DNA from: a virus
Virus record (IMG/VR): IMGVR_UViG_3300028840_006907
Coordinates: 96,001-160,000 of that record
DNA length: 64,000 nt
Strand: one strand, 5' to 3'
Positions 12,928 to 63,624 of this stretch are shown here, piece by piece (position 1 is the stretch's first letter; each line of letters starts with the position of its first letter). The notes below the pieces were generated by a model. That model was not told where the DNA came from. It saw only the letters and a list, made by a program, of their open reading frames with translations, and ran no database searches. Made by a program: the position numbers and the translations under genes.

Positions 12928-13202
12928 AATCCTAGTGCTTCTTTTTCTTTTTTGGTTAATTTTTTTAAAGCTCTTTTTCTGTAAATAACTTTGGGATCTG
13001 TTTTATCCAAATTATAGACTTTTCCTTCAACAATGACACGACCGCCACTGATCTCTTCTCCACTGGCTTTTAAAGGTCTGTAATCAACCCATTCTTCTTT
13101 CAAATCCCCACATTTTAATTCACAAGTTTCTTTATGGATAAATGCCTCTTTCATAAGATTCGACCCACCCATTGTACTTCTTTTCATTAAATAGACTTCC
13201 AT
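12924..13202 (-). CDS. hypothetical protein
   Basis: 92 aa ORF. Confidence 0.4.
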   Translation of the reverse strand: MEVYLMKRSTMGGSNLMKEAFIHKETCELKCGDLKEEWVDYRPLKASGEEISGGRVIVEGKVYNLDKTDPKVIYRKRALKKLTKKEKEALGL

Positions 13203-13612
13203 TATTTATTCCTTTTAATCAATGTCAAAAGAGTCAGCACTTCCACATTTGGGACACCTAGCTTTTCCATGGTTGTGGTCTCTTTTCCAATTCTCATAAA
13301 ACCACCATTTTTGAATCCAAAACTTTCGAAAGATCCTTTTAAATTGCTGTAACGCTAACCACCAGGAGTGCGGGTCAGATCTTTTCCAACCATTTTCTTC
13401 AGCATAATAGTCATCAAACCTAATTCGTGTTGGATACCAGTAACCTTTTTTAGTGAATACATATGAAAGGAAACAGGATATTGGATTATACCCCCATTTT
13501 ATTTTTATGATTGGGAAAGTATAATAACCATATTTTCCAAATTTAAAGTCCCAGAAATCATCCTGACTCCAATCACAGTTATGACAGTGTAAATAAGCGA
13601 TATTTAACTCCT

Positions 13613-15797: not shown

Positions 15798-15872
15798 AAG
15801 TGGTATACACAACTTAAAGAGCGGTCCTTCATGTTAACGTAGGTAATTTTCTCTGTAAGTTGTTGATTTATA

Positions 15873-16282
15873 TGGAGGTGAGGAGAGTTGAACTCCTGTC
15901 CGCGAAGGTATCTTGAGTAAACCTCTACATGTTTAGTCTATGGTTTAAATCTTATTCATAATCACGTTCACAGACAAACTTAATTAAGAACCAGTCTCTA
16001 GTCTCATTCATTGGTCAAGACTCCTCAATGAACCAGAACCCGTTTGGCTATCCGGAATTAACAGGGTTCAGTTAAAACCGGATTTGTCGTTTTTTGTTTA
16101 AACGACGGCTTCTTCTGCTTGATGAATAGCAGCAAGGTTAAGTGCTGAAAACATCGCACAGAAGTTAACTGTATTAGTTTTTTCAGTTATTATTGAAATC
16201 GGCTTTTTTACGAGGCCAACCGATTAACCTCGACATGCAGTTTACATTTCAACTCATCACGTCGAAAACCAAGTACACCCCC
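15873..16282 (-). ncRNA. ssrA: tmRNA (transfer-messenger RNA, ssrA-like)
   Basis: Minus strand 5' GGGGGTGTACTTGGTTTTCGACG..., internal GGTTGGCCTCGTAAAAAAGCCG matching conserved tmRNA pseudoknot/resume region, 3' tRNA-like GGAGTTCAACTCTCCTCACCTCCA. Confidence 0.8.
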
Positions 16283-31068: not shown

Positions 31069-31175
31069 GGAGAGGTAGGTTTAATTGGTAAAATCAGTGC
31101 TTTGCACAGCACCTAAGCTAGCAAGGTGCCATTCCAGGGATGGATTTCGGGGTTCAAGTCCCCGTCTCTCTGCCA
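31069..31175 (+). other. atypical 107-nt tRNA-like element (canonical acceptor, D-arm and T-arm; aberrant anticodon region)
   Basis: GGAGAGG/TCTCTCT acceptor pairing, D-arm GGTTTAATTGGTAAAATC, T-arm CGGGGTTCAAGTCCCCG, CCA; middle holds GTGCTTTGCAC hairpin and GCTAGC palindrome. Confidence 0.35.
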
Positions 31176-32282: not shown

Positions 32283-32624
32283 ATGGGTCGATACCAAATA
32301 GCACTGGAGAAAAAACCTAAAAAGATCGAGTTAAATAAATCCGATACTAAGAAAATTGATATTTCTAATAAATCTGAATTAAAACAATCATATTTCACCG
32401 ATCTTAAAGTGATGATGGAGTTTATGGCTGAAAAGGGTGGTAATTGGATACCAGAAAAAGATCTTTATTTTGAAGAGATCCCTTTAGTAGCCTATAAATC
32501 TGATAACGAAATGGTTGTCATTACTGCAAAGGATATGCATCTTACGGAAAAGAATATAACGGAAATGGACAGAAAATCTTTTAGATCTGAGAAACCTCTT
32601 CGATTTAAAAAGTTTTTTGAGTAG
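32283..32624 (+). CDS. MxRY-family small protein (paralog 1)
   Basis: 113 aa; N-terminus MGRYQIALEKKPKK. Confidence 0.5.
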   Translation: MGRYQIALEKKPKKIELNKSDTKKIDISNKSELKQSYFTDLKVMMEFMAEKGGNWIPEKDLYFEEIPLVAYKSDNEMVVITAKDMHLTEKNITEMDRKSFRSEKPLRFKKFFE

Positions 32625-32636
32625 GATAGGAATCAT

Positions 32637-32945
32637 ATGAGCCGGTATCGTATCATAGTTGATGAAAAAAAAGAAGAAGAACAGATCCATTTAAGACAGG
32701 AACGAAATAAAGAAGAGAATAATCGCATATTTGACGATGTAAAAAAGATGAGTGACTTTATGTCCCTATTAAATTCAGTATGGGTTCCTACTCATTTTGG
32801 GTTCATTATGAAATACAGGGAATTTGAAGGAGTGATAACAGTTATTATAAGTACTGCAGAGTATAATAAAACAAAAGATCTTTTACCCAAAGAATTGTTA
32901 ATACAATTCGAAGCTCATGGAGTGGTAGTTTTTAAAAAATCATGA
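32637..32945 (+). CDS. MxRY-family small protein (paralog 2)
   Basis: 102 aa; N-terminus MSRYRIIVDEKK. Confidence 0.5.
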   Translation: MSRYRIIVDEKKEEEQIHLRQERNKEENNRIFDDVKKMSDFMSLLNSVWVPTHFGFIMKYREFEGVITVIISTAEYNKTKDLLPKELLIQFEAHGVVVFKKS

Positions 32946-46401: not shown

Positions 46402-47571
46402 TTATCCAAAATTAGACTTTCGGGTCAGAGGTATCTTTTTTGCAGTATCCGCAAATAGTTTTAACCCTTTCCATGAATCAATGTGGTAGGAAGTAATATA
46501 AGGTGCCTTAGGAGGTGGGCAACCACAATGCCCGTTAACTCTAACTGATCTTTTACCCTCTTTATTGGCATACATCTCCTTAGCATCTTTTAAAGGCATA
46601 TTCCCATCGACCATCCAGTAAGTCCATGCTCTTTCAAAGGTGAAACCCGGGAGTTCTCCAGAGATAGAGAAAGGAACTTCTCCGTCACCTTTTTTAGATA
46701 CAATATCAATACCGGCTAGATCAAGTTCAAGTCTGATGTAATGATCACAAGCTACCTCTCCAGCAAGATTCCCCATTGTATAACTTTCTCCATTATTGGC
46801 TAGATGCGTTTCGCATTTCTTTTTGATTTTTTTCTGATAACATTCTTCGTGGAAATATTTCCATTTTTCATAAAGAACTTCATCATTTTCTTCAATGACA
46901 TAATTTTCATCTATATTTTTTCTGCCATTTTTGTTTTTCTCATAACCATATTCTTTATCAATAGTCAGGTCAATGAGCCCCCTATTGAAAATAGTATGAT
47001 GAAATATATAGACAGTATTTTTGTCTGTGTTTCGAAGCTCTTTTTCAATTTCTGTTAAAGTTTTCCCGACGTATTTGGAGTTTATCTCAAATTGGTTAGA
47101 GTACCGTAATCTTTTGGTTTTATGGCAATACTCTACTTCCCATCCTTTATTACAGTGGGAACATTTTACATAAGCGGGAGGTAAATCATTGCCCATTGAG
47201 AATGAGATACTTATAGGATACGGCCTTTTGTTTTTTGCCCAATCAAAATCTTCTGCATCCATCTCTTCTCGGGTTAATATATTAGGGATATTTTCTTTAC
47301 TCCATCTTTCAATAAAATCCCAAAATTCTGTCTTTGTAAAAACTTTTCCTACAGGAAAATTGAAAATTTTCTCTACCGGAATAAAACCTGTCGCAGTACC
47401 TAAATTACCACACGTATCGAGATAATATCGACCTAAGACATAATATTCGTATAGTCTTTCATCACGTTTGTAACCTGCTTCGTGTCTTTCATTGATCATT
47501 TCCCAAAATGTGTTGTAAGATTTAAGTGACTTTTCGATTCCTTTAATTGTGTTATAGTCTTGTTTTTTCAT
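46402..47571 (-). CDS. hypothetical protein
   Basis: 389 aa ORF, no motif recognised. Confidence 0.5.
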   Translation of the reverse strand: MKKQDYNTIKGIEKSLKSYNTFWEMINERHEAGYKRDERLYEYYVLGRYYLDTCGNLGTATGFIPVEKIFNFPVGKVFTKTEFWDFIERWSKENIPNILTREEMDAEDFDWAKNKRPYPISISFSMGNDLPPAYVKCSHCNKGWEVEYCHKTKRLRYSNQFEINSKYVGKTLTEIEKELRNTDKNTVYIFHHTIFNRGLIDLTIDKEYGYEKNKNGRKNIDENYVIEENDEVLYEKWKYFHEECYQKKIKKKCETHLANNGESYTMGNLAGEVACDHYIRLELDLAGIDIVSKKGDGEVPFSISGELPGFTFERAWTYWMVDGNMPLKDAKEMYANKEGKRSVRVNGHCGCPPPKAPYITSYHIDSWKGLKLFADTAKKIPLTRKSNFG

Positions 47572-48599
47572 TTTACCACATGTTTAGAAGTGATTGTTTC
47601 TGCGAATTCTGGCCCCCTATCATAGTCATCAATCCATATGTTATCACAGTGCCGATTTCCTTTTTTCTCACTGCCGTACCATTGTGTCCTCCAATGTGCC
47701 TCAACTCTTATCTTATGATCCAGTTTCCATTTTCCGACACCTCCAGCTTGTTTGATACGAGTTATATCGTTATTCTTATCCTTTATATTTGAACCAACAA
47801 TAATAAATCTTTTGTTGGTAGCTTTTTCTTTCCTTTGTTCCAGTTTTCTTTTCTTGGTTTTATTTTTAATATTTTTTAATCTTGCATCAAAATCTAGTGG
47901 ATCATGGTTTTTTAAATCAGGTTTTTTGCTTGTGATATATAAAAGAGTGTTAAATACAAATTTTGCGAATTCTTCTAAATGATCAACATTTTTATATAAA
48001 TCATATTTATCTACTTCTTCCTTTTTTCTTTTTGTCTCATTTTCAATATAAATCTTTAATTGATCCTGAATTTTTCCAGGTTGCATTTCTATGTGGAAAT
48101 AAAAGGTGGTATCATTAAATGGTATGTCTGGTGTAGGTTTTAATAATGAACATGCCATTACTCTAATATGCTTTTCAGTATTGAAATCTCGAAGATAAAC
48201 GTAAAAACCATTTACAGGATGTTTACTTCCATCTATATCATTTATAGAAAAAAGACCTGGATCTATCTGTATAAAAATTTCTCTAAACGGGGATCTTAAG
48301 AAATAAGCATCAGTATTACAATTTGTTTGGGCTAGTCTTGCTGAAAGTTCTGGTGTTATATAGTATATCTGATCAGCATTATTTTTCATTTGATACATAT
48401 GAAAATATGTATTGTAAAAATGACTTATTCTTGCTGGTGAATCAAATTCAGTAAAAATAGAAGAAGTAGCATTACAAAATTGTTTGAATGTAGGATCAAA
48501 ACCAATATCGAGCATATTTTGTACTAGTATAGTTGGGGCTACTGTCTCTAGATGTTTAATAGCCAGTTCATAATGAGTTTTTGTGAAATACTTCTCCAT
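47568..48599 (-). CDS. hypothetical protein
   Basis: 343 aa ORF. Confidence 0.5.
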   Translation of the reverse strand: MEKYFTKTHYELAIKHLETVAPTILVQNMLDIGFDPTFKQFCNATSSIFTEFDSPARISHFYNTYFHMYQMKNNADQIYYITPELSARLAQTNCNTDAYFLRSPFREIFIQIDPGLFSINDIDGSKHPVNGFYVYLRDFNTEKHIRVMACSLLKPTPDIPFNDTTFYFHIEMQPGKIQDQLKIYIENETKRKKEEVDKYDLYKNVDHLEEFAKFVFNTLLYITSKKPDLKNHDPLDFDARLKNIKNKTKKRKLEQRKEKATNKRFIIVGSNIKDKNNDITRIKQAGGVGKWKLDHKIRVEAHWRTQWYGSEKKGNRHCDNIWIDDYDRGPEFAETITSKHVVK

Positions 48600-50979: not shown

Positions 50980-50998
50980 AAAGTTCTTTGAAAATTAT

Positions 50999-51274
50999 GG
51001 GGGTGTGGCAGAAGGGATATGCAGTCCTCAAAAAGTAGACAGGTCTGGGTAAAACCGGGTCATTACAGGAAGTTTGTATTCGCTACTGAAACGAAACAAA
51101 GGGAAGGTAGTGTAACGCTTACGGACTGGTGCTTGCAAGGGTTTACGGAAGACACTGACACGTTGCCTGGGATCTGGAGACAGCCCAGGAGGGTTTGTAA
51201 ATAACGGCAGGAAGTCCTTTTTCCCAATAGTGAGCTTTGGATGACTTATGCCGGTTCGAATCCGGTCACCTCCA
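50999..51274 (+). other. tRNA-like ends (acceptor GGGGGTG/CACCTCC, T-arm GCCGGTTCGAATCCGGT) enclosing ~200-nt GC-rich insert; unresolved structured RNA or intron-containing tRNA
   Basis: Acceptor complementarity and canonical T-arm at 3' end; no normal anticodon arm found by hand; GC content far above surroundings. Confidence 0.4.
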
Positions 51275-51360
51275 TCAAAATAAATTAAATAGATAGATAG
51301 GCAAACTGGCAAGCCATTTGGTTGTAATAGAAAATGTGTAGCAAGATCATAAAGACATAC

Positions 51361-51632
51361 TGGAGTGTAGCTCAGTGGCAGAGCGGGTGGCTGTCTTGGT
51401 TGGCAGCTCTTATAGGAAACTGTAAGATGAAAACTCGGTGAATTCAGGGAAACCTAAGTCTTAAACAGATATGGCAATCCTGAGCGAAGCCTTGAGAAAG
51501 GAACGTGCAGAGACTTATAGCGCCGAGCACCTAAGGTGAAAACTATGGTGATGAGATAGTCCAGGCCCTTGGGAAATCAGGGGAATTACTGTAACCACTT
51601 GGTCGGGGGTTCAAATCCCTCCACTCCAGCCA
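51361..51632 (+). tRNA. tRNA-Asn (anticodon GTT) interrupted by a group I intron
   Basis: Exon 1 51361-51394 (TGGAGTG...GGTGG-CTGT), exon 2 51592-51632 (TAA-CCACT...CACTCCAGCCA); spliced loop CTGTTAA; U1:A72 as in bacterial tRNA-Asn. Confidence 0.7.
51395..51591 (+). ncRNA. group I intron (~197 nt) in tRNA-Asn anticodon loop
   Basis: 5' exon ends in U; IGS GGCAG pairs with exon CUGU; R-like GCAGAGACTTATAGCG and S-like GAGATAGTCC elements; terminal G before exon 2. Confidence 0.65.
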
Positions 51633-52329: not shown

Positions 52330-52537
52330 ATCCCAGCCATTTAATTTTTTTATCAATATATTTACCACAAAGACGTATATTATTTATACAACTTAAAAAT
52401 AGGAATAATATATGACATAGATAAAAATACCACCCTAGATCCTCAAAATATTCAAACCTCCTTAAAACACGGTTATTATACCAAATGGTGTTATACCAAA
52501 CAGTACAATATTCATTCATTTAAACAGGAGAATAACC

Positions 52538-52837
52538 GTGATCAAAAATAGAAAATTTTTAAAATTTGAATTAAAATTAGAAGCTCAAAAATTACGAAAA
52601 ATCAAGACTGATATTAAAACCAAGCAGAGAGCTGGCCAGTATGCCGGTCATGAACAGTCCGAATTATTGACTCTTAAATGGAATTACCGCCATCGATTTA
52701 TTGCTTATTGTATGATGCGGGGTAGAGAATATAAGCAAATCGAAAGAACATGTAGAGTTGAACCAAATCATGACTGGGTAAAGGAGATCATCAATGAATA
52801 CTCCCCGCAAAAAGAAACTATACGTGCTTCTGCGTAA
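52538..52837 (+). CDS. hypothetical protein
   Basis: 99 aa ORF. Confidence 0.4.
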   Translation: MIKNRKFLKFELKLEAQKLRKIKTDIKTKQRAGQYAGHEQSELLTLKWNYRHRFIAYCMMRGREYKQIERTCRVEPNHDWVKEIINEYSPQKETIRASA

Positions 52838-53108
52838 AGATTTGGATGAAACTTATCGATGTGTTCAAGGAGGCCATGCTATTGCTGAGTATTCTCTAAA
52901 GGATTACCAGTCATTTAAAGAATGGGCAAATGGAACTCTGATTTATCTTGGAGTACCTGATTTAAAAGCTTTGGAATTATGGTTGCTCAAATTGGAACGG
53001 AAAAATATTTTTCATATCAGGTTTCATGAACCCGATCTTGGGAATGAGTTAACATCGGTAGCTTGTATAAATACAGGGAAAATTTTTAAAAGTCTTCCTC
53101 TTGCTTAA
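52794..53108 (+). CDS. possible PTH2-like peptidyl-tRNA hydrolase
   Basis: 104 aa; KLYVLLRKDLDE...GGHAIAEY weakly resembles PTH2 family. Confidence 0.35.
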   Translation: MNTPRKKKLYVLLRKDLDETYRCVQGGHAIAEYSLKDYQSFKEWANGTLIYLGVPDLKALELWLLKLERKNIFHIRFHEPDLGNELTSVACINTGKIFKSLPLA

Positions 53109-53115
53109 AGTTACA

Positions 53116-53189
53116 GCGCCTGAGGCTCTGAGGTGAGCAACTTGGACTCTAAATCCAAGTTTTTCAGGGTTCGACTCCCTACAGGCGCA
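53116..53189 (+). tRNA. suppressor tRNA (anticodon CTA, reads UAG)
   Basis: Hand fold: acceptor GCGCCTG/CAGGCGC, anticodon stem TTGGA/TCCAA, loop CTCTAAA (U33, CUA, A37), T-loop TTCGACT. Confidence 0.65.
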
Positions 53190-53287
53190 TTATAACTATA
53201 ATCTTTCCAACATTTTAAATTTTTAGTTATCACAATCATCTCTCAATCTTGTATAATATATAAGGGAAAAATTTAAGGAGATATAAA

Positions 53288-54022
53288 GTGATAATAATTT
53301 CTAAATTCCATGATTATTACGATAGTGGAATGACATATGGTATTGATAAAGAATTGAGGTTTATAAGAAAAACTGAAAAAATAGATAAACAATTGGAGAT
53401 ACCTGAAAAGATTACTGAATTAATGAAAGATTTGCCTAAGGTTTATGATTATTATAGAAGTCAACAATTTACAGCTCAACCTTTTATAATAATTTTCTGT
53501 GGTCAGGTTCATCTGGGGTATCATTTTTTTAATTTGAAAGATCCTAAGGATAAGAACTATTATGTGCGTCATACAGATCCAGATATCTATACATATGATT
53601 TGCCTTCAGTAGAAAAAGTGATTCAGAAATACGAACCGGAGATGTTCAAAACGTTTCGTAATAAAGATACACTCTTTCACCGTATCCTACCTTCATTCAA
53701 ATATGACGTTCTGGAAAGAGCATTCAAAAAATTCGAAGACAAGAAAATGGATGTCGGGATTCATCTGGATGAAGAATCCCCGATCCTATATCTTGGATAT
53801 GATGACAGAGATTTTATTTACATAAAGAATCCTGTTCTTCGGAAACTTCAATTTTTTAAAAAGGTTAATTCATTTACAGCTTTCCAGAATATCTCAATGT
53901 TTATAGGAGGAATTTGTAGCAAGACTTTCCCTCCCACCGTGGAACTCAGTGAAAAAGACAGAATCGGAAAACAAGGATTTGACAAGTGGTCTTTCAGAAA
54001 GAAGGGGGAAAATTCAAAATGA
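53288..54022 (+). CDS. hypothetical protein
   Basis: 244 aa ORF. Confidence 0.5.
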   Translation: MIIISKFHDYYDSGMTYGIDKELRFIRKTEKIDKQLEIPEKITELMKDLPKVYDYYRSQQFTAQPFIIIFCGQVHLGYHFFNLKDPKDKNYYVRHTDPDIYTYDLPSVEKVIQKYEPEMFKTFRNKDTLFHRILPSFKYDVLERAFKKFEDKKMDVGIHLDEESPILYLGYDDRDFIYIKNPVLRKLQFFKKVNSFTAFQNISMFIGGICSKTFPPTVELSEKDRIGKQGFDKWSFRKKGENSK

Positions 54023-55726: not shown

Positions 55727-56029
55727 TTATAATATTTCTTTCACTTTGTTTTTTAATGTATCACATTTAGGATCAAATTCTGGCTCTTTTCCATCGTTCC
55801 ATGGTGACTTAATCCAGAAAAAGCATGAGTCAACACGACCCACTCTGATGTCTCCATTCATGTAATCCCTTTGTCCTTTAAAATAAGCCCTCTCAATGGC
55901 TTTAAAGTCGGTAGTGGCCTCTATACTAATGTATTGTATTTTATTGCTCTCAGGGGCAAATAACCGCCATGAGATAAGGAATAGTAAGTAAGCTCCTATT
56001 AAAATTATAAAACTATTAATTTTAAACAT
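55727..56029 (-). CDS. membrane-anchored hypothetical protein
   Basis: 100 aa; N-terminal hydrophobic helix. Confidence 0.4.
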   Translation of the reverse strand: MFKINSFIILIGAYLLFLISWRLFAPESNKIQYISIEATTDFKAIERAYFKGQRDYMNGDIRVGRVDSCFFWIKSPWNDGKEPEFDPKCDTLKNKVKEIL

Positions 56030-56897
56030 ATAAATTGTTCTCTTGTATAATACCAGCTATTAATGTGAGAAAAGGAGACTCCCTAAGATACTTTTCCCGA
56101 TCCTCCTTTAATTCTTTTCTGATATCTGTAGAGGATATCTTTGGTATTTTATTACCAGCATCAAAAAACTTATGTGGTTCTTTCATATACCAATTCACAT
56201 TTGGATCGCGCTTTTCTCCTTGTCTAGATACTACAATGAATGGTATCAATTTTTCAAGGTGTTCATAGTTAACCCATTTATCAAATGTATTGGCATTATC
56301 AAGTCCAATGACATAATTGAATCGGTATTCGTTTTTGGCAAAATCCTCTTCCATAAATTTATTAAGGAAATAATATGTCTCTCCAGCTAGTTCGTGAACA
56401 ATTTCATAATCGCATACTTTCATTCTCTTATCTACCTGTACATATTCTCGACACATGGCTAGCCGTAGTGATGCAGGAGCCATTTCTTTTCCATATAAAT
56501 GTCTGTAGCAGGGGATGTACCAAACTTCATCGAATAACCCTGCTTCATCGAGTAAGAATTTTCCTATAGCAAGATGGCCAGGATGGATGGGATCAAAAGC
56601 ACCCCCGATGAGCGCAACTGATACTTTCCTGCCAAGTTTACGGTATAAAGATCGGCTATTAATTTTGGTGATGTTCATTTCAACCAATTCATTAAAATCA
56701 TAACCGGCTTCATTAATCCATTGTATCAGTGTACCAAGTAGATCGCTCGTTTCATCTTTTAATCCCGTCATGGTCCTGGCTCTTGTCAATTCAAATGCTT
56801 CTTTAAGGATATCATTCAATCTGATATCAGTAGGAGTATTTCCAAAAGCTTCTGAATACGTTTTATTGATATTATTTAATAAATCTGATAAATTCAT
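56022..56897 (-). CDS. nadD: nicotinate-nucleotide adenylyltransferase (NadD/NMNAT-like) with N-terminal MazG-like extension
   Basis: 291 aa; GGAFDPIHPGHL (HxGH nucleotidyltransferase) and ISSTDIR; N-terminal ~90 aa EAFELTRARTMTGLKDETSDLLGTLIQWINEAG resembles MazG/HisE-type NTP-PPase. Confidence 0.75.
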   Translation of the reverse strand: MNLSDLLNNINKTYSEAFGNTPTDIRLNDILKEAFELTRARTMTGLKDETSDLLGTLIQWINEAGYDFNELVEMNITKINSRSLYRKLGRKVSVALIGGAFDPIHPGHLAIGKFLLDEAGLFDEVWYIPCYRHLYGKEMAPASLRLAMCREYVQVDKRMKVCDYEIVHELAGETYYFLNKFMEEDFAKNEYRFNYVIGLDNANTFDKWVNYEHLEKLIPFIVVSRQGEKRDPNVNWYMKEPHKFFDAGNKIPKISSTDIRKELKEDREKYLRESPFLTLIAGIIQENNLYV

Positions 56898-57078
56898 TTT
56901 TCAATTTCTTTTTAGGTAAATTTTTTATTATACAATCAATACAAATATCTTTACTTTTCCACTGCCCATTTTCTATAGTTCTTAATACCACCCTATAACT
57001 TTTATCTCTAATAAAGAGCCTGCTATCGTCAATATCCATTTGTTTTTTGCATATATCACATATTGTAATTTTAGCCAT
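56872..57078 (-). CDS. small zinc-ribbon protein
   Basis: 68 aa; CDICKK...CIDCI. Confidence 0.4.
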   Translation of the reverse strand: MAKITICDICKKQMDIDDSRLFIRDKSYRVVLRTIENGQWKSKDICIDCIIKNLPKKKLKNEFIRFIK

Positions 57079-57095
57079 TTTGTTTTAAATTACAT

Positions 57096-57887
57096 TTATA
57101 TATCTAAATGGCAAATACGAGGCATTTCCATTTTATGAGCATTCTTTTCATGTCGTTCTAGATATAATTCAAGAACTTTCATTTTTCTTTTTTCTATTGT
57201 TAACATAGATTTCATCGCTTCAAGTCCTTTGATAGTTTTTAAACCACCTAATTTTTTACAAAAATCCATAGCCCATTCCAATTCAGAATATGTAGCTCCA
57301 ATCTGATCTTCATCAGTTCTGCCATCTTCCCATAATCCATCAGTAGGTTTTGCTGTTAAAATATCTGAGTTCACTCCAAGATAGGCTCCCATACCATATA
57401 CCTCAGATTTGACTAGCTCTCCTATTGGACTTATATCAACACCACCATCACCGAATTTTGTAAAGAAACCAATTCCGAAATCTTCAACCATATTCCCAGT
57501 ACCAACAACATAATAATTATGGGTATTTGCGATAGCATAAAGAGCTACCATTCGAAGACGGGATCTGGTATTAACCATGGCAAATTCATTGTAATAATTA
57601 CTATGATTAAAATTATTAAAGACAACTGAAAGATCTTCCGTATGACTGGTAACATTGGTATAGTCTTTTTTTAATTTTTCAACATGTGCTTCTGCTCTGG
57701 GAAGAATATCTTGATTTATTGGCATATGGGCACATATAACAGGTTTATAAGTTCTGGCACATAAATTTGATACAACTGCTGAGTCAATTCCACCTGAAAC
57801 TCCAACTACACAGCCATCTACATGGGATTCCTTCATGTCTCTAATAATCCAATTTACAATATGATCTGAGACTTTTTTATAGTCCAA
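57096..57887 (-). CDS. nadE: NAD+ synthetase (NH3-dependent type)
   Basis: 263 aa; PP-loop GVSGGIDSAV. Confidence 0.8.
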   Translation of the reverse strand: MDYKKVSDHIVNWIIRDMKESHVDGCVVGVSGGIDSAVVSNLCARTYKPVICAHMPINQDILPRAEAHVEKLKKDYTNVTSHTEDLSVVFNNFNHSNYYNEFAMVNTRSRLRMVALYAIANTHNYYVVGTGNMVEDFGIGFFTKFGDGGVDISPIGELVKSEVYGMGAYLGVNSDILTAKPTDGLWEDGRTDEDQIGATYSELEWAMDFCKKLGGLKTIKGLEAMKSMLTIEKRKMKVLELYLERHEKNAHKMEMPRICHLDI

Positions 57888-57899
57888 ATTTATCCTCCT

Positions 57900-59624
57900 T
57901 TAATTCATGGCAATTGAGTATATTTTTTTATTGTCAACAAATAACACTTTCATATGTTCATGGTATAATCGCATAGATACATTAATCGGTGTATTCGTAA
58001 TATCCTTACTTCCTTTATTATTTTTAAATAGAGACATTTTATCATTATCGACAGAGATGCACATTCCAGTAGGTAATGTAATAAAATTAACTGGATGGTA
58101 ATCAATCATATCTTCCTGTTTAATATCATAGCTAGTATGGGTTTTATCAAAACAAATTGTATATTTAAAATAACTTCCCTGTTTTTCTGTGACCACTATA
58201 CAGATTCCTTTATCATACCGGGCATCAATGATTCTTTGGCCGTCCAATTCTTTTACATAAGTATTAATACATTTCCCTCTTTCGAAAGGAATAGCTAATC
58301 GTATCTTTGTGAAATCATCCTGTACAATAACACCTCGGAAAGACTTATATGATTTGCTTATTCTACATACAGTTTTAGTCGTATGAATAACTCTCTGGAA
58401 TTTTTCAAAATGATTCTCTATCAATCTTCCATTATTAATGGTGTAAATATACCCATTATACCCCATTATGTCTTCAGCTTTGATGTCGGATATTGATTTA
58501 TTATTTAAATCAAAGAACTCAGCTTTTAAATTCTTGAAATAAACTATTAAGGGATCCGCTCCATAAGCTTCACACATGCCTACTATGGTTGATTTTAAAG
58601 GTTTATGGAACTTAACCACTTTATCTTTATTCTGGTCATATATGGCTTTAGAAGTTATCACAAAGCGTTTATCATTAAAGAAGAAGATATTCCGAATCGG
58701 TTCATTTACTTCGAATACTTTTTCTACTATGAAATCACCTCTACTAGTTATAGTTCTGGCAACTGCTGCTACAACCACGACCTCGTCCGGTAATGGCGGG
58801 ATGGATCTCTCATTATTTTTAAATTCTGATACATACCATTCAAAATGTTTTTTAGGGATCACAGAATAATCTTGGCACATGGCCGGTAATGGCTTTGCTC
58901 CTTTATCAAAATTTGAGACTCCATCATCCATCCTTTTAATCCATTGTTTCGGTTTATAATCGATATGTCTACTTTTGTAAGGGTGAATACCCAGATACAT
59001 TTGATAAGTTACGACACCCCAGGAGAACCAGTCAGAGTACTCAGTAAATTGAGCATTCTTAACCTGTCGATCTCGAACACTATCCATAAGAGCATCTGCT
59101 GGGAAGCTTTTTGTTTTCCAGGCATCCACATCAATGTGATAAACGGTCTTTAAATCACCGCTAAGAAGGAAATTCATCTCATTATAATCAACTACTAGGA
59201 AGCCATTTTTATGGATGTATTGTAGGGCTTTCTGCATTTTAAGAACTAGGTCAGCTATATCTGTTGGACTTAAATGTTTATTGTCTCTGAAAGTCTTAGT
59301 AAATACTTGGCAGAGAAATTCAACTCCATCAACATATCTCATTGTAAACCCAATGGGTGTGTGGTTCCTCACTTCATATAAAGGTTCTATGGGTGACAGG
59401 ATATCATCTCGTTTTAATTCGGTCAATTCGTGTATTTTTGCTTCTGGTATCATATTTTTAGTATCATGATAAATTTTATATGCAATCCCATTTAGATAAA
59501 AAACTGTTCCAAAACCACCAGAAGCTTTATAATTATCATCAGTCAAAGTAACAATTTCTTTTGTTGTCTGAACTTTGAATGACTTCTTTATTATCGGGTT
59601 CATTTTTGTTTTCGGTAAAATCAT
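57900..59624 (-). CDS. protein-kinase-like (Ser/Thr kinase fold) protein with C-terminal extension
   Basis: 574 aa; Gly-rich loop SGGFGTVF, AYKIY Lys, catalytic-loop-like VVDYNEMNFLL, DVDAW. Confidence 0.6.
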   Translation of the reverse strand: MILPKTKMNPIIKKSFKVQTTKEIVTLTDDNYKASGGFGTVFYLNGIAYKIYHDTKNMIPEAKIHELTELKRDDILSPIEPLYEVRNHTPIGFTMRYVDGVEFLCQVFTKTFRDNKHLSPTDIADLVLKMQKALQYIHKNGFLVVDYNEMNFLLSGDLKTVYHIDVDAWKTKSFPADALMDSVRDRQVKNAQFTEYSDWFSWGVVTYQMYLGIHPYKSRHIDYKPKQWIKRMDDGVSNFDKGAKPLPAMCQDYSVIPKKHFEWYVSEFKNNERSIPPLPDEVVVVAAVARTITSRGDFIVEKVFEVNEPIRNIFFFNDKRFVITSKAIYDQNKDKVVKFHKPLKSTIVGMCEAYGADPLIVYFKNLKAEFFDLNNKSISDIKAEDIMGYNGYIYTINNGRLIENHFEKFQRVIHTTKTVCRISKSYKSFRGVIVQDDFTKIRLAIPFERGKCINTYVKELDGQRIIDARYDKGICIVVTEKQGSYFKYTICFDKTHTSYDIKQEDMIDYHPVNFITLPTGMCISVDNDKMSLFKNNKGSKDITNTPINVSMRLYHEHMKVLFVDNKKIYSIAMN

Positions 59625-60487
59625 TAATATTCCTCATTTAAATAAATAGTAGCAGTACCAACGTCATCATAATGATGCCAATTATGTTTTTTAACTTTCT
59701 TACCAAAAAAGATCATGCGCTTTTTTACAAATTCACCGGTAGTGTTTTTAAATCCAATAAATTCGGGTATTGTAATATCTAATCCTATATCTTTTTTATA
59801 ACTATCTCTGTAGGTTGATATACCATCTGTACATATTGTAACAGATAAGAGTTTATCCTTCATAATATTGGAAATTTCTTCGGAATAGATTGTATCAAAA
59901 GGTAATGAAGATTCAAGAGGATTTTCTAGCCCCTTTTCTCCTGACAAAGTAATAATTTCCCGAAAGCATTGAGGATTATCTTCACCTTTAATAGCACAAT
60001 TTTTTAAATAGACTGTTCTATCACTTATTAGATAAAATGGGGCATTTAAGGAATAATCTATTTTCATTATTAGCTGATAATTACCGCCATCTTCTTTTCT
60101 ATAATTAGCTGTAATGACACCATCACCCCATGCAAATACCAATACTCTTGAAGACAATCTTATAGTTATTAATAATGTGGCTTCCAAAGCCTTAGGAGTA
60201 ATGGGGTATATCTTTCTTATTTCATCAGCTCTTTTGTGAATGCCGTTTCCGAGATAAAATGAGAGTTCTTTCAGATTTAATCGTTCGAATAATCCAGTTT
60301 GGATACAAAATTCAATATTATATTTAGCAACATGACATAATATTTGAGCACCTACTTCAGAATGATCCGCAGAAGAACATCCATCTGCAACGATGCCATA
60401 CTCAATTCCTTTAAAAGAGCCACTTAATGCATAGTCTTGACAGACTAAATGAGTGCTTCCTTTTTCATAATATGAGTCACAGCTCAC
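59624..60487 (-). CDS. PP2C-family (PPM) protein phosphatase-like
   Basis: 287 aa; GIVADGCSS, FAWGDGV, ICTDGIS motifs. Confidence 0.6.
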   Translation of the reverse strand: MSCDSYYEKGSTHLVCQDYALSGSFKGIEYGIVADGCSSADHSEVGAQILCHVAKYNIEFCIQTGLFERLNLKELSFYLGNGIHKRADEIRKIYPITPKALEATLLITIRLSSRVLVFAWGDGVITANYRKEDGGNYQLIMKIDYSLNAPFYLISDRTVYLKNCAIKGEDNPQCFREIITLSGEKGLENPLESSLPFDTIYSEEISNIMKDKLLSVTICTDGISTYRDSYKKDIGLDITIPEFIGFKNTTGEFVKKRMIFFGKKVKKHNWHHYDDVGTATIYLNEEY

Positions 60488-60546
60488 AATTACCTCCTTT
60501 TAGTAAGCACAGAAGGCTCCATTACAGAGCCTTCCTGCAAAAATTC

Positions 60547-61314
60547 CTAGTTAAATTTGAAATCTTTAATTGGTTGTGAAGGTTGTCCGGTGCCGAGGGC
60601 ATCTGACTGTGAGCTAACACTCTGACTCATAAACTGGGCTAGTTTAGCTAATTTTGATTCAGAAACATCACCCATTGATATATATTCATCAAGTCCAGCT
60701 TCTTCTTTGAAATCCGTAAGTAATTTCTTTAAATCTTTTCTACCATCATTAACACCAATAAGAATGGTACGAACTGATTCCATCGCTTCATCTTCATCAT
60801 TCATACTGTCTAATGTTTCTTTTATCATTTGTGGAGTAACACCGAATTCGGGGCAATTATCTTCACCATCAGTAATTATGAAAACCATTCCATTAGCATT
60901 TACGATCCTTTCAGAATTATAGAGCTTATTTATATAATCTCTCATGACGTCCAAACCACAAAGAGTCGCTTGAAAAAGATTTGTAGCATTCGCTGGAAAG
61001 ATCACATCGTCGTAATTATCTAGTTCAATATCACTCAGAAGCATCCATCCATGAATTTCCTGGATACCTCCATTATTAAAAGCGATAACACGTAATAAAA
61101 GATTCAAAGCTCGTGGGGAGCCTTTACATGACCCTACACATGCTTTTATCATTTTTTCCAGACCTGTTTTAAACCCTTTCACTGAATAGGTTTTATCAAC
61201 GATTATAGTGACTGCTGTATATTCTGTAGCTCCAAGTCTATCAACTTTAACTTTTGTATAATCGAATTTATGGAGAGATACATCGGAATCACTTACATTC
61301 ATAAACTTAGGCAT
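60547..61314 (-). CDS. vWA-domain protein (TerY-like)
   Basis: 255 aa; VFIITDGEDN and degenerate MIDAS IIVDKTYS. Confidence 0.55.
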   Translation of the reverse strand: MPKFMNVSDSDVSLHKFDYTKVKVDRLGATEYTAVTIIVDKTYSVKGFKTGLEKMIKACVGSCKGSPRALNLLLRVIAFNNGGIQEIHGWMLLSDIELDNYDDVIFPANATNLFQATLCGLDVMRDYINKLYNSERIVNANGMVFIITDGEDNCPEFGVTPQMIKETLDSMNDEDEAMESVRTILIGVNDGRKDLKKLLTDFKEEAGLDEYISMGDVSESKLAKLAQFMSQSVSSQSDALGTGQPSQPIKDFKFN

Positions 61315-61326
61315 AAGTTATCCTTT

Positions 61327-62154
61327 CTAGAAAAAGTCCACTGTTGTAGCAACCTGCATACCATAATCATCTGCAGTATACTTGTTAATAAAGTCTTCAC
61401 CATTTTGCTCACATCCAGGTACACTTGAAGTAGCATCTTTGAGTAAAACGAATTTTTTAACTTGGTCGGCACCTAAATATTCAAAGATATCTCTGAATGT
61501 AAAGGAATAGCAGTGTGAAAGAGCTTCACCAGCTCCAAGAATTATATCATATTCCTTGATTACATTGATAAAATCTTCGTTTAATCTGGTTCCTTCATCC
61601 TCTGGGTCAATCACGTCAGCCACTAATGCTGAATAGTGCTCAGTGAAAGGATTACTCCCTTTGGTGGTACGGGGAGCAATACCGTAATAAGTGGCTTCCC
61701 ATTCAGAGACCGCATTGAGAAATTCAGGCTCTAACATTTGTCCATCACTTCCGATAATACAATGTTCAGGCCATATCATTAATTGATATCTGTTATTAGC
61801 CTTTAATTGTTTCAAGTAGTCAACATAACGCTCTTGAAAGCCTGGATTGAAAGCACGGTATTCTCCATCTAAGACCATTTCTAAAGTTAAGTACGTAGGT
61901 ACAGTATTCCCTTTGTGAAGGAAAATAGGTGTGGGGTGGTTTCCCTCTCTGTCAATCCAAGATCGGCTGTGAGCCACGTGGAGCTTATAATGTGAGTCCA
62001 TCGTGATTTGGATTTCATCAATATCACCCCCGAATTTTCGAATCATTTTTGAAAGTCTTGCCATGTCTTCAACGGCACCAGGAACAGTGAGAGTTCCCCT
62101 TGTAAAGTCTTTTTGAGGGTCAATTACCACAAGGCACACTTTAGGTTTTTCCAT
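61327..62154 (-). CDS. pncA: nicotinamidase (isochorismatase-family)
   Basis: 275 aa; VVIDPQKDF, WPEHCIIGSDGQ, RTTKG, catalytic-Cys context GAGEALSHCY. Confidence 0.8.
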   Translation of the reverse strand: MEKPKVCLVVIDPQKDFTRGTLTVPGAVEDMARLSKMIRKFGGDIDEIQITMDSHYKLHVAHSRSWIDREGNHPTPIFLHKGNTVPTYLTLEMVLDGEYRAFNPGFQERYVDYLKQLKANNRYQLMIWPEHCIIGSDGQMLEPEFLNAVSEWEATYYGIAPRTTKGSNPFTEHYSALVADVIDPEDEGTRLNEDFINVIKEYDIILGAGEALSHCYSFTFRDIFEYLGADQVKKFVLLKDATSSVPGCEQNGEDFINKYTADDYGMQVATTVDFF

Positions 62155-62201
62155 ATCTTATCCTCCTTTAAGATTTAGTATATGTTATCTGTTATTTATA
62201 A

Positions 62202-62444
62202 TTAAAGCAACCCTTTTATATCAGCCCTTTCAATATCAGTTCTGTTAAAAAAGTTCTTATTTCCTTTTTTTCTAGGTTCTGGTAATACCCCGCATTTTAT
62301 ACGACGGTATATAGTTTGTTTGGATATATTATATTCAGTACAAATATCTCTCAAACTAATTTCATCTCTATGATGTTTGTAAAGTATTTTAGCTACTTCT
62401 TCTGCTATAGCTTTTGCTAATTTTTTAATATCTGCATCATCCAT
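62202..62444 (-). CDS. small HTH DNA-binding protein (AlpA/MerR-like)
   Basis: 80 aa; ISKQTIYRRIKCGVLPEP. Confidence 0.5.
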   Translation of the reverse strand: MDDADIKKLAKAIAEEVAKILYKHHRDEISLRDICTEYNISKQTIYRRIKCGVLPEPRKKGNKNFFNRTDIERADIKGLL

Positions 62445-62451
62445 AATATAT

Positions 62452-63624
62452 TTATATCATTAAATCTTTTTTACAATGTACAATCATATCTTTATTACCA
62501 GTGTTCTTTCCTTCGTCATCTGATAACTTGACTGTGTCAATCCATCTGCCATTTATCATACAGGCTATCATTTTAATAACAATATTCAATGGTATGACAT
62601 CTACGTCATTTGTAAACCAGGTTCCAATTCCATATGCATCTCTGATCAAATTGATGCAAGCTTTATGGATAGATTTCACTTTATCTATACTGTTAATAGC
62701 ATCAGAGAATACCAATGTTTTAAGCATCGGATCAATTCTTAATTTTTGGTATTTACTTACTGATTTAGTAATGAAATCAAAAGGTGAACCACTATCTTGC
62801 CGGAGACCATCAAAAAGTTTCGCAAAAAATGTATTGAATGTTTTTAGGAATACATCAGTAGTAAATGTATCTGGAAGAGCAATTCCAAGATCTCCTTGAA
62901 ATATATCAGACCATATTTTCAGAGCCATCTCATTAGCCATACGAAATCCATACATAGCTGCATGGAATTGATACCATTCATGAGCTTTTGTTCCTATGGG
63001 AGTTAAATTGTATTTCTTTGCTAGATAAACATTACTAGGTCCAGAGAAACAACTACCTAGATATTGCTTTGCATCACGAACTACTTCATCATGATTCTTT
63101 AGAGAGTATCTTCTACGAGTACCAAATTCAGCGATGGGTACTCCGATTTCTTTAAGAGCCATAAATTTCAGACGATTTCTTTCTTTACGTTCCTTACGAA
63201 TCATCTTTGTCTTACCAGTTTTCTCAAAATAAAGTTGACTGATAGTAGCCATCAAAGGTACTTCCCAAAGAATCTTTCGGTACCAGGGTCCTATATACTT
63301 ACAATGAAAATTAGATCCTTCTTGTGTTAATATTATCTCATCTGGGTTATACCGGTACCCACTAAGAAGATCGATATAGGCAGGATTTAAATAATAACAT
63401 TTTTCTTTAAGAAAGTCTATATCATCTTTGCTTAATGTAAAACCACGAAATGTGTCTATAATTCTCCTTAATTCATCGGCAAAGCCATCTGGAAACTCTC
63501 TACCATCACGGTTTATAAATTGGTACATAGCGAGAGCATTGGGGTATTTCTGACATGCCCCACACTGCATAGTGAATTTATACACATCATTATCGAGTAT
63601 ACCAGCTACGTACTCATTCTCCAT
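62452..63624 (-). CDS. pncB: nicotinate phosphoribosyltransferase
   Basis: 390 aa; N-terminal LDNDVYKFTM signature of NAPRTase family. Confidence 0.8.
   Translation of the reverse strand: MENEYVAGILDNDVYKFTMQCGACQKYPNALAMYQFINRDGREFPDGFADELRRIIDTFRGFTLSKDDIDFLKEKCYYLNPAYIDLLSGYRYNPDEIILTQEGSNFHCKYIGPWYRKILWEVPLMATISQLYFEKTGKTKMIRKERKERNRLKFMALKEIGVPIAEFGTRRRYSLKNHDEVVRDAKQYLGSCFSGPSNVYLAKKYNLTPIGTKAHEWYQFHAAMYGFRMANEMALKIWSDIFQGDLGIALPDTFTTDVFLKTFNTFFAKLFDGLRQDSGSPFDFITKSVSKYQKLRIDPMLKTLVFSDAINSIDKVKSIHKACINLIRDAYGIGTWFTNDVDVIPLNIVIKMIACMINGRWIDTVKLSDDEGKNTGNKDMIVHCKKDLMI

Follow-up and report, generated by a model that had tools for sequence, protein, structure and literature searches.

A tRNA with anticodon CUA at the edge of a tRNA array

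This analysis concerns a class I transfer RNA (tRNA) gene of the amber suppressor type (i.e. anticodon CUA, hereafter tRNA(CUA)) and the Pth2-like gene that precedes it in a huge phage. Both lie on the plus strand of a 64,000-nucleotide (nt) stretch of DNA (i.e. the window; positions 96,001 to 160,000 of IMG/VR record IMGVR_UViG_3300028840_006907), the tRNA at 53116..53189 and the Pth2-like gene at 52794..53108. Together with flanks of ~9.5 kb on each side (L001 and L029), 84 kb of sequence was read, amounting to ~22% of a 388,651-bp contig; the record positions read are 270,819-353,968 (JGI 3300017963, Ga0180437_10000019) and the window is the reverse complement of 280,443-344,442. The phage genome is AT-rich (34% GC), no DNA-level relatives were found among GenBank phages, and the window has the content of an auxiliary region of a huge phage, with a tRNA array, a transfer-messenger RNA (tmRNA), a group I intron, genes for nicotinamide adenine dinucleotide (NAD) salvage, an amidase gene and proteins matched only by PHROG.

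A first-pass annotation, made from the letters of the sequence, had proposed an amber-suppressor tRNA at this position from a hand-folded cloverleaf, and both the gene and every element of the fold were confirmed. ARAGORN called a 74-nt tRNA with anticodon CTA at exactly 53116..53189 (+). The Rfam tRNA model matched over its full length, as an elongator tRNA should (RF00005, model positions 1-71, 38.1 bits, E = 8.7e-07; gathering score 29 bits); this match needs a lax-filter regional search, the fast-filter run over the whole window having missed the tRNA. The minimum-free-energy fold was a cloverleaf of -32.5 kcal/mol (z = -3.7), and none of 200 shuffled sequences folded equally well. The 7-bp acceptor stem (GCGCCTG/CAGGCGC) is Watson-Crick paired throughout, the T-loop is TTCGACT and the D-loop is short but retains GG, so that the conserved elbow elements (i.e. 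G18G19 and TTCRANY) are in place. The anticodon loop, folded by hand as CTCTAAA, is the 7-nt loop of an amber suppressor (i.e. CUCUAAA) with U33, the CUA anticodon and a purine, A37. The anticodon helix measures 6-7 bp and the variable loop 4-5 nt, two bases (AG) occupy positions 8-9, a single C-A mismatch is found in the T stem at 49-65, the discriminator is A73 and CCA is not encoded. The window tRNA is genuine and canonical.

In total, ARAGORN identified 34 tRNA genes and a tmRNA in the window, with tRNA(CUA) as the last tRNA at the edge of the array. Its best match among the other 33 tRNAs was Thr-CGU (69%). Both tRNA-Gln genes of the phage have U1-A72, G73 and an encoded CCA, whereas tRNA(CUA) has G1-C72 and A73; as the acceptor ends differ and Gln is never the nearest isoacceptor in the wider family, tRNA(CUA) is not Gln-like. 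The ARAGORN label 'tRNA-Pyl' reflects the anticodon alone.

A Pth2-like gene and a conserved open reading frame precede the tRNA

The Pth2-like gene encodes 104 amino acids (aa), and 7 nt separate its stop codon from tRNA(CUA). Its start is a plain ATG preceded by AGGAG as ribosome-binding site, and the in-frame stop found upstream of it is TAA. Identification relied on profile, AlphaFold2, Foldseek and PHROG comparisons. A profile built from 34 family members matched Pth2 of PDB entry 2zv3 (E = 3.2e-06), followed by 1rzw, 1xty and Bit1. The AlphaFold2 model of the window protein (predicted local distance difference test score 88.7, predicted template modelling score 0.82) has the Pth2 fold, as nearly all of the top 14 Foldseek matches in the PDB were Pth2-family structures (probability 1.00, template modelling scores 0.67-0.79). 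With Pfam PF01981, the window protein scored 12.6 bits (E = 0.17) and its orthologue on a 273,563-bp IMG/VR contig (i.e. L074) scored 21.2 bits (E = 3.6e-04); the PHROG match was phrog_3668 ('hydrolase'). The motifs R-x-D-L, Q-x-G-H-A, E-P-D and T-A are conserved in the family alignment, with a 2-residue deletion at the 'GK' of Pth2. The window protein thus shares its fold and profile-level homology with cellular Pth2 (PF01981; 2zv3, 3erj, 1xty and 1q7s), whereas the phage subfamily is divergent, with 'GK' deleted and 'EPD' in place of 'DAG', and the linkage to a suppressor tRNA and the in-frame UAG codons described below are traits of the phage family and not of cellular Pth2.

The start of the Pth2-like gene is overlapped by an open reading frame (ORF) of 99 aa at 52538..52837 (+), which carries the conserved motif RH-HIAYC-LRGR-EQIE and had no match in Pfam, NCBIfam, PHROG or the PDB. 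In 46 of 69 loci, a homologue of this ORF immediately precedes the Pth2-like gene, and in 7 the two are fused in frame. A weak promoter-like site (TTCAAA-17-TATTAT, 9/12 matches, 52451..52479, +) lies upstream of the three-gene unit; such sites were not above shuffle expectation in this region, and the site is compatible with an operon without being evidence for one. A second promoter-like site (ATCACA-17-TATAAT, 10/12 matches, 53229..53257, +), placed after the tRNA and before the gene at 53288..54022, is the likely downstream boundary of the unit, and L074 has a full TTGACA-17-TATAAT in the equivalent place after its tRNA(CUA).

The three-gene cassette recurs in large phages

An exact match to the anticodon arm was not found in IMG/VR; a scan of IMG/VR with an anticodon-arm 15-mer returned 14 tRNA(CUA) genes, among them that of L074. 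The L074 tRNA differs from that of the window by compensatory changes in two stems (acceptor and D), and homologues of the 99-aa ORF and of the Pth2-like gene both come before it. Searching IMG/VR with the Pth2-like protein yielded 61 loci on contigs of up to 372 kb and 27-57% GC, whereas a protein search of a large database gave just 5 close matches. A same-strand tRNA(CUA) was present in 50 of these 61 loci, within 400 nt downstream in 36, and was the sole tRNA in the 10-20 kb locus in 17/61. The control set comprised 92 loci, of which 13 were independently found with a tRNA(CUA) and 79 lacked one; the Pth2-like gene occurred in none of the latter (0/79). Among 185,579 species genomes, seven contigs of metagenome-assembled genomes (MAGs) contained the Pth2-like gene, six of them with a tRNA(CUA), and these contigs are probably mis-binned phages. 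The pairing was also present in the huge-phage record LR756500. Judged by homology and gene order, the 99-aa protein, the Pth2-like hydrolase and tRNA(CUA) form a conserved cassette recurring in dozens of large phages, which has apparently not been described before; in the literature searched, no paper linked Pth2 to suppressor tRNAs or noted amber codons in a hydrolase gene.

The tRNA family of the cassette was examined in 58 distinct sequences. Each acceptor pair was kept in 96-100% of members, with 4-6 pair types per position, and the anticodon loop was nearly invariant (U33 in 55, A37 in 57 and A38 in 55). This combination of compensatory variation and a near-invariant anticodon loop points strongly to selection on a working tRNA. 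A loop with A36-A37-A38 is typical of tRNAs that read codons starting with U. T-loops were canonical in the family, the variable loop was 3-6 nt in 57/58 members and 8 nt in one, and an anticodon helix longer than 5 bp was found in 17/58.

Carriers among cultured phages

By tblastn, the Pth2-like family was detected in 242 GenBank phage records, 207 of which were Mycobacterium phages (Bixzunavirus: Bxz1, Alice, Catera and others). The other carriers include XacN1, Stenotrophomonas phages RAS14 and CM1, Acinetobacter phage ME3, Lak megaphages, LR7565xx huge phages and phages of Aeromonas, Tenacibaculum and Yersinia. In Alice, gp150 is annotated as 'peptidyl-tRNA hydrolase'; 250 nt beyond it lies a gene annotated as 'tRNA-suppressor (cta)', with the tRNA array and a tmRNA next. 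The ME3 annotation places a tRNA with 'anticodon CTA' upstream of the Pth2-like gene, at a distance of 0.45 kb. The 216 annotated genes of Alice, which has a single tRNA(CUA), end in TGA (141), TAG (41) or TAA (34), and the genes for its portal, head, sheath, tape-measure protein, endolysin and holin are long and uninterrupted. As TAG stops are common and the structural and lysis genes are intact, this complete cassette-bearing genome is standard-coded, including its late genes.

For the two CUA tRNAs of XacN1, its authors searched for targets by extending genes past their annotated amber stops, without finding any (PMC5852040), and PTH2 in jumbo phages has been proposed to act as a ribosome-rescue factor (PMC7824862). 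The orphan CUA tRNAs of the standard-code jumbo phages (i.e. XacN1, Bixzunavirus and ME3) resemble that of the window phage in accompanying a big tRNA set and having no known target, and the Pth2-like family is common to all of these phages. Their Pth2-like (or HD-Pth2) genes open with ATG, 0-2 codons and a TAG, whereas the window copy has a plain ATG.

Several further features of the carriers were recorded. The Pth2-like domain forms the C-terminal half of a 260-280-aa protein in RAS14 (L157), XacN1 (ORF364; L165) and L153, and the N-terminal part of these proteins resembles by eye a candidate HD-type domain (…ILQHGLSVW/F…HDIGK…). ARAGORN placed a tRNA(UUA) in Lak-A1 and Lak-B1 (Prevotella phages; L158 and L159), ~0.6 kb ahead of the Pth2-like gene and in the same orientation; the anticodon UUA is of the ochre type and could read UAG by wobble as well. 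In Alice (65% GC), the reading frame of several TAG-terminated genes continues through the spacer without a further stop into the following gene, namely in gp2-gp3 (nucleotidyltransferase; L166 252..2348), gp65-gp66, gp87-gp88 (RNA ligase), gp205-gp206 and gp243-gp244 (Pnk), so that suppression would yield fusion proteins. The RF-1-domain (ArfB-like) protein of Alice is gp197.

In-frame TAG codons in the hydrolase genes of relatives

An in-frame TAG was present in 19 of the 61 IMG/VR Pth2-like genes, and an in-frame TAA or TGA in none. Seven of the 19 genes have the TAG inside the domain, at ~5 different positions; L074, for example, has a TAG at codon 33 with clear homology to the window protein on either side, and L112 is likewise TAG-bearing. 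The remaining 12 have the TAG 1-6 codons after an ATG with its own Shine-Dalgarno sequence, and mostly have no canonical start downstream. Early amber codons are likewise found in Alice (GAAGGc ATG TAG GTG), XacN1 and RAS14 (ATG AAG TAG ACC), ME3 (ATG ACT TAG ATT), LR756500 and LR756504, and two of the MAG contigs (L169 and L173) have an internal TAG in the Pth2-like gene.

The specificity of these interruptions was assessed by counting in-frame stops under strict homology criteria, with TGA and TAA as controls; this count replaced a loose tally dominated by off-frame alignments. Under the strict filters, all strongly supported in-frame TAGs were in the Pth2-like gene, other sites being at the level of the TGA and TAA controls. 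The coding-density gain of the IMG/VR cassette loci with TAG as a sense codon was +0.020, as compared to +0.021 for the TGA-sense control, and TAG terminated 237 of their 1,708 tiled genes. The base following the in-frame TAG (n = 24) was A in 15, G in 7, C in 2 and U in none, whereas 235 true TAG terminators were followed by A in 69, G in 50, U in 79 (34%) and C in 37 (purine, Fisher P = 6e-05). Classical work in E. coli (Bossi 1983; Miller and Albertini 1983) reportedly found that a purine after UAG favours amber suppression. As read from these alignments, the hydrolase gene of the relatives is selectively and repeatedly interrupted by UAG in what looks like a suppression-friendly context, while the neighbouring genes use the standard code.

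Due to the early TAG, a GTG or a downstream ATG has been chosen as the start of the Pth2-like gene, and this start is probably mis-annotated in hundreds of deposited genomes. Annotated starts located just after the early TAG, whose preceding ATG has its own Shine-Dalgarno sequence, were seen in NC_028986.1 (Alice gp150), AP018399.1 (XacN1 ORF364), OP752703.1 (RAS14) and KU935715.1 (ME3_195), corresponding to loci L164, L165, L157 and L176; starting the ME3 gene at the annotated GTG truncates the first conserved beta-strand. Should the TAG be read through, the annotated starts are probably wrong.

TAG is an ordinary stop codon in the 84 kb

The first-pass annotation had described the genes of the window as intact under the standard code, with some ending in TAG, and this description holds. 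A greedy standard-code tiling gave ~110 genes in the window, of which 73 end in TAA, 21 in TGA and 16 in TAG (~14%). No supported in-frame TAG was found in the 84 kb (i.e. the window plus 19 kb of flanks), a stretch that includes the amidase gene, and the code-11 gene calls of JGI are dense in both flanks. A codon-usage score detected no TAG with coding sequence on both sides save for a weak candidate at 13202..13462 (-), and this TAG-containing ORF was rejected as it has no homologue, no ribosome-binding site and a C after the TAG. The frame closes soon after the TAG stops with one exception, the pair 32283..32624 and 32637..32945; a read-through fusion of the two was rejected, these being tandem paralogues that each have their own Met and ribosome-binding site. 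A scan of the window for early stops (i.e. ATG, few codons, stop, long ORF) showed no excess of amber codons (TAG 5, TAA 8, TGA 6).

New coverage in the 84 kb amounted to 3,085 nt with TAG as sense and to 3,036 nt for the TGA-sense control, and the new ORFs obtained under TAG-sense were non-coding-like or overlapped tRNA genes. An apparent gain of +3.5% in window coverage under TAG-as-sense was dismissed as a tiling artefact, the new coverage being equal to the TGA control. Within the 84 kb read, the in-frame TAG counts and code comparison that had been suggested as a check for the whole genome yielded no supported site and no gain over the control, and TAG acts as an ordinary stop there. Of the recoding that the earlier annotation had considered, the amber-suppressor-type tRNA stands but the code change itself is unsupported in this stretch; its other suggestion, programmed read-through, is borne out in so far as the Pth2-like genes of relatives carry an in-frame TAG, but not for the window copy, which has none.

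Phage CUA suppressor tRNAs are known from recoded phages and also from their standard-code relatives (bioRxiv 10.1101/2021.08.26.457843). The window phage shares with TAG-recoded phages (crAss-like, Lak and jumbo phages; code 15) a tRNA(CUA) in standard-code surroundings of an AT-rich large phage, and with the Lak phages a homologous Pth2-like neighbour gene. It differs from the code-15 phages in that its tRNA is not Gln-derived, TAG is a common terminator and in-frame TAG is absent from the 84 kb, where neither TAG-interrupted conserved genes nor a rarity of TAG as terminator, the hallmarks of code 15, was observed. The 'code-change module' of recoded phages (Borges et al.) combines a suppressor tRNA, a synthetase and a release factor upstream of alternative-code lysis genes; by contrast, no release-factor or synthetase gene adjoins tRNA(CUA) in the window, where it is surrounded by the Pth2-like gene and the 99-aa ORF, by the gene of a phrog_4243 protein and by small ORFs.

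Proposed role of the tRNA and the hydrolase

The interpretation that we favour, with modest confidence, is that this huge phage uses the standard code and that its tRNA(CUA) is a functional amber suppressor working together with a Pth2-type hydrolase. The window tRNA most likely causes partial, regulated read-through and not a code change in an otherwise standard-code genome. During infection, the tRNA would be processed from the hydrolase transcript, receive its CCA and be charged by a host synthetase, and the charged tRNA(CUA) would compete with release factor 1 at UAG. The Pth2-like enzyme might recycle the peptidyl-tRNA produced by read-through and drop-off, or might trim the pool of acylated suppressor. 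In the relatives, a UAG inside the hydrolase gene would couple hydrolase output to suppressor activity and could serve as a sensor or feedback device; the hydrolase and tRNA of the window phage would be expressed without this UAG gate, which is absent since the hydrolase gene has no UAG and a plain AGGAG-ATG start. We infer that UAG is decoded in vivo and that suppression and hydrolysis are functionally coupled. We further suggest, more tentatively, that the cassette may be a self-contained, phage-specific translation-control circuit and that many lineages, among them the cultured Bixzunavirus phages, XacN1, RAS14 and ME3, may make the hydrolase only via UAG read-through.

The gene for release factor 2 (prfB) contains an autoregulatory in-frame stop, and programmed UAG or UGA read-through occurs in viruses (e.g. 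Q-beta A1 and gag-pol of murine leukaemia virus). The arrangement proposed for the relatives would be like prfB in that the gene for a termination or recycling factor has an in-frame stop sensing its own activity. It would differ from prfB in that the stop is bypassed by a co-encoded suppressor tRNA and not by frameshifting or near-cognate read-through, and the window copy is without the stop. If true, the orphan suppressor tRNAs of jumbo phages with the standard code would have a target assigned to them for the first time, and the hydrolase gene would be a new case of a translation-factor gene controlled by the very stop codon that its product helps to manage. Suppressor tRNAs in phages are commonly taken as markers of an altered code, but many standard-code large phages carry one too; the cassette gives a concrete target in the relatives and ties stop-codon suppression to peptidyl-tRNA recycling. 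A tRNA(CUA) alone is accordingly no ground for switching a phage to code 15 during annotation. As the same architecture occurs in phages of Mycobacterium smegmatis, Acinetobacter, Xanthomonas and Stenotrophomonas, the proposal is testable by standard genetics and proteomics.

A number of observations weigh against this interpretation. Within the 84 kb, no gene needs suppression and no client of the tRNA was found, and the window's own Pth2-like gene contains no in-frame TAG. The window protein scores below the curated Pfam cut-off (12.6 versus 23 bits), and its hydrolase activity and catalytic residues are putative, being predicted from fold and sequence. The association is one-sided, as the Pth2-like gene was found in 3/13 of the independent tRNA(CUA) loci, which are short, and TAG-recoded Lak phages also carry a Pth2-like homologue near a suppressor tRNA. 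In the tRNA family, the discriminator is not fixed (A 22, U 18, G 14, C 4), and comparison with the isoacceptors singled out none as the origin, Trp being over-represented (helped by a one-base loop difference) and Gln never closest. The residues aligned to the TAG sites were heterogeneous as well (P/Q/S, G/K and K/E), and neither comparison assigned an inserted amino acid. For the early TAGs, an alternative in principle is that they terminate mini-ORFs and that translation then re-initiates; in Alice, a GTG that could serve as a start, with a Shine-Dalgarno sequence, comes directly behind the TAG, and most early TAGs are followed by an Ile codon. However, re-initiation leaves the internal TAGs, the exclusive use of TAG and the linkage to tRNA(CUA) unexplained.

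Late-gene recoding of TAG (i.e. code-15-like) is regarded as an unlikely alternative, in which the tRNA would serve TAG-containing structural and lysis genes elsewhere and the window would be an early or auxiliary region kept in the standard code. A strong correlation links suppressor tRNAs with recoding, often of late genes only, and the neighbourhood of the suppressor can stay in the standard code (bioRxiv 10.1101/2021.08.26.457843; PMC13037316); the genome is AT-rich, the TAG-recoding Lak phages share the Pth2-like gene near a tRNA(UUA), and the part of the contig read is ~22%. These points are opposed by the ~14% of TAG terminators without a supported in-frame TAG in the 84 kb, by a tRNA unlike the tRNA-Gln of the phage that has no release-factor or synthetase gene next to it, and by the carriers, as Alice is standard-coded in its late genes and no targets of amber read-through were found for XacN1 by its authors (PMC5852040). 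It is rather improbable that the suppressor is instead a weapon or counter-defence aimed at UAG-ending messages of the host or a competitor, whose proteins would be extended or destabilised or whose ribosome rescue would be overloaded, with the Pth2-like enzyme and the tmRNA shielding translation of the phage. Such a role would fit the presence of a phage tmRNA, the combination of cassette, tmRNA and RF-1-domain (ArfB-like) protein in Alice, the retention of the cassette in standard-code genomes where only the hydrolase gene needs suppression, and the ribosome rescue proposed for PTH2 of jumbo phages (PMC7824862). It has no direct evidence of any host target, the phage's own TAG-ended genes (14-19%) would be hit too, and the repeated gain of UAG in the hydrolase gene would be left unexplained.

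That tRNA(CUA) is an inactive or neutral passenger, i.e. a decaying or accidental anticodon mutant in a tRNA array, is considered highly improbable. Its place at the edge of 34 tRNAs, the C-A mismatch in the T stem, the short D-loop, the lack of an encoded CCA and an Rfam score (38 bits) that is the second lowest in the window would agree with decay; against this, dozens of highly divergent phages have kept the tRNA directly behind the Pth2-like gene, often with no other tRNA nearby, compensatory changes are strong across the family and its functional anticodon loop is invariant, and relatives with an in-frame TAG in the adjacent gene need a suppressor that works. In a tRNA-Pyl, the variable loop measures 3 nt, a single base joins the acceptor stem to the D stem, the D-loop has 5 nt and no GG, and the T-loop lacks the T-psi-C consensus. 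Reading of UAG as pyrrolysine, to which the ARAGORN label alludes, has in its favour the CUA anticodon, the possible 6-7-bp anticodon helix and the short D-loop; it is contradicted by the canonical T-loop, the GG in the D-loop, the two bases at 8-9 and the variable loop of 4-5 nt, while an anticodon helix of >5 bp occurs in just 17/58 family members and no pyl genes were detected among the roughly 40 window proteins covered by the Pfam and PHROG scans. The structural features effectively refute the pyrrolysine alternative, whose probability is negligible.

Other features of the window

The gene following the tRNA (53288..54022, +) matches phrog_4243, homologues of which were found in 27 IMG/VR loci, mostly inside the tRNA arrays of large phages and often adjoining a tRNA gene. 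A link of this gene to tRNA(CUA) was rejected, as only 1/27 loci has a tRNA(CUA), and this tRNA is unrelated in sequence. Upstream of the cassette, a tRNA gene at 51361..51632 (+) is split by a group I intron (51385..51583; Rfam RF00028, 92.8 bits). The exons of this tRNA have U1-A72, G73 and CCA, as do the two tRNA-Gln genes of the phage; ARAGORN with introns called it Thr(tgt) and trial splices gave Tyr(gta). In the same mode, ARAGORN proposed a tRNA-Gln(ttg) at 50998..51276 that contains a 207-nt insert; Rfam gives this insert no support as an intron, and the call may be spurious. A weak tRNA match of 104 nt at 31069..31175 (+; Rfam 30.1 bits), without a standard ARAGORN call, was assigned with introns as tRNA-Cys(gca) with an 11-nt insertion.

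The tmRNA was located at 15870..16282 (-) with ARAGORN and Rfam (159.9 bits) and has the predicted tag peptide EKTNTVNFCAMFSALNLAAIHQAEEAVV. The precomputed JGI table lists a match to the AcrVA2-like anti-CRISPR family (PF26125) for the ORF at 47568..48599 (-), for which a Pfam scan returned nothing at E <= 0.001. A NAD-salvage cluster occupies 56022..63624 (-) and comprises genes for NAPRTase (62452..63624), NAD synthase (57096..57887) and an NMNAT-like cytidylyltransferase (56022..56897), interleaved with those for a Ser/Thr protein kinase (57900..59624) and a PP2C phosphatase (59624..60487).

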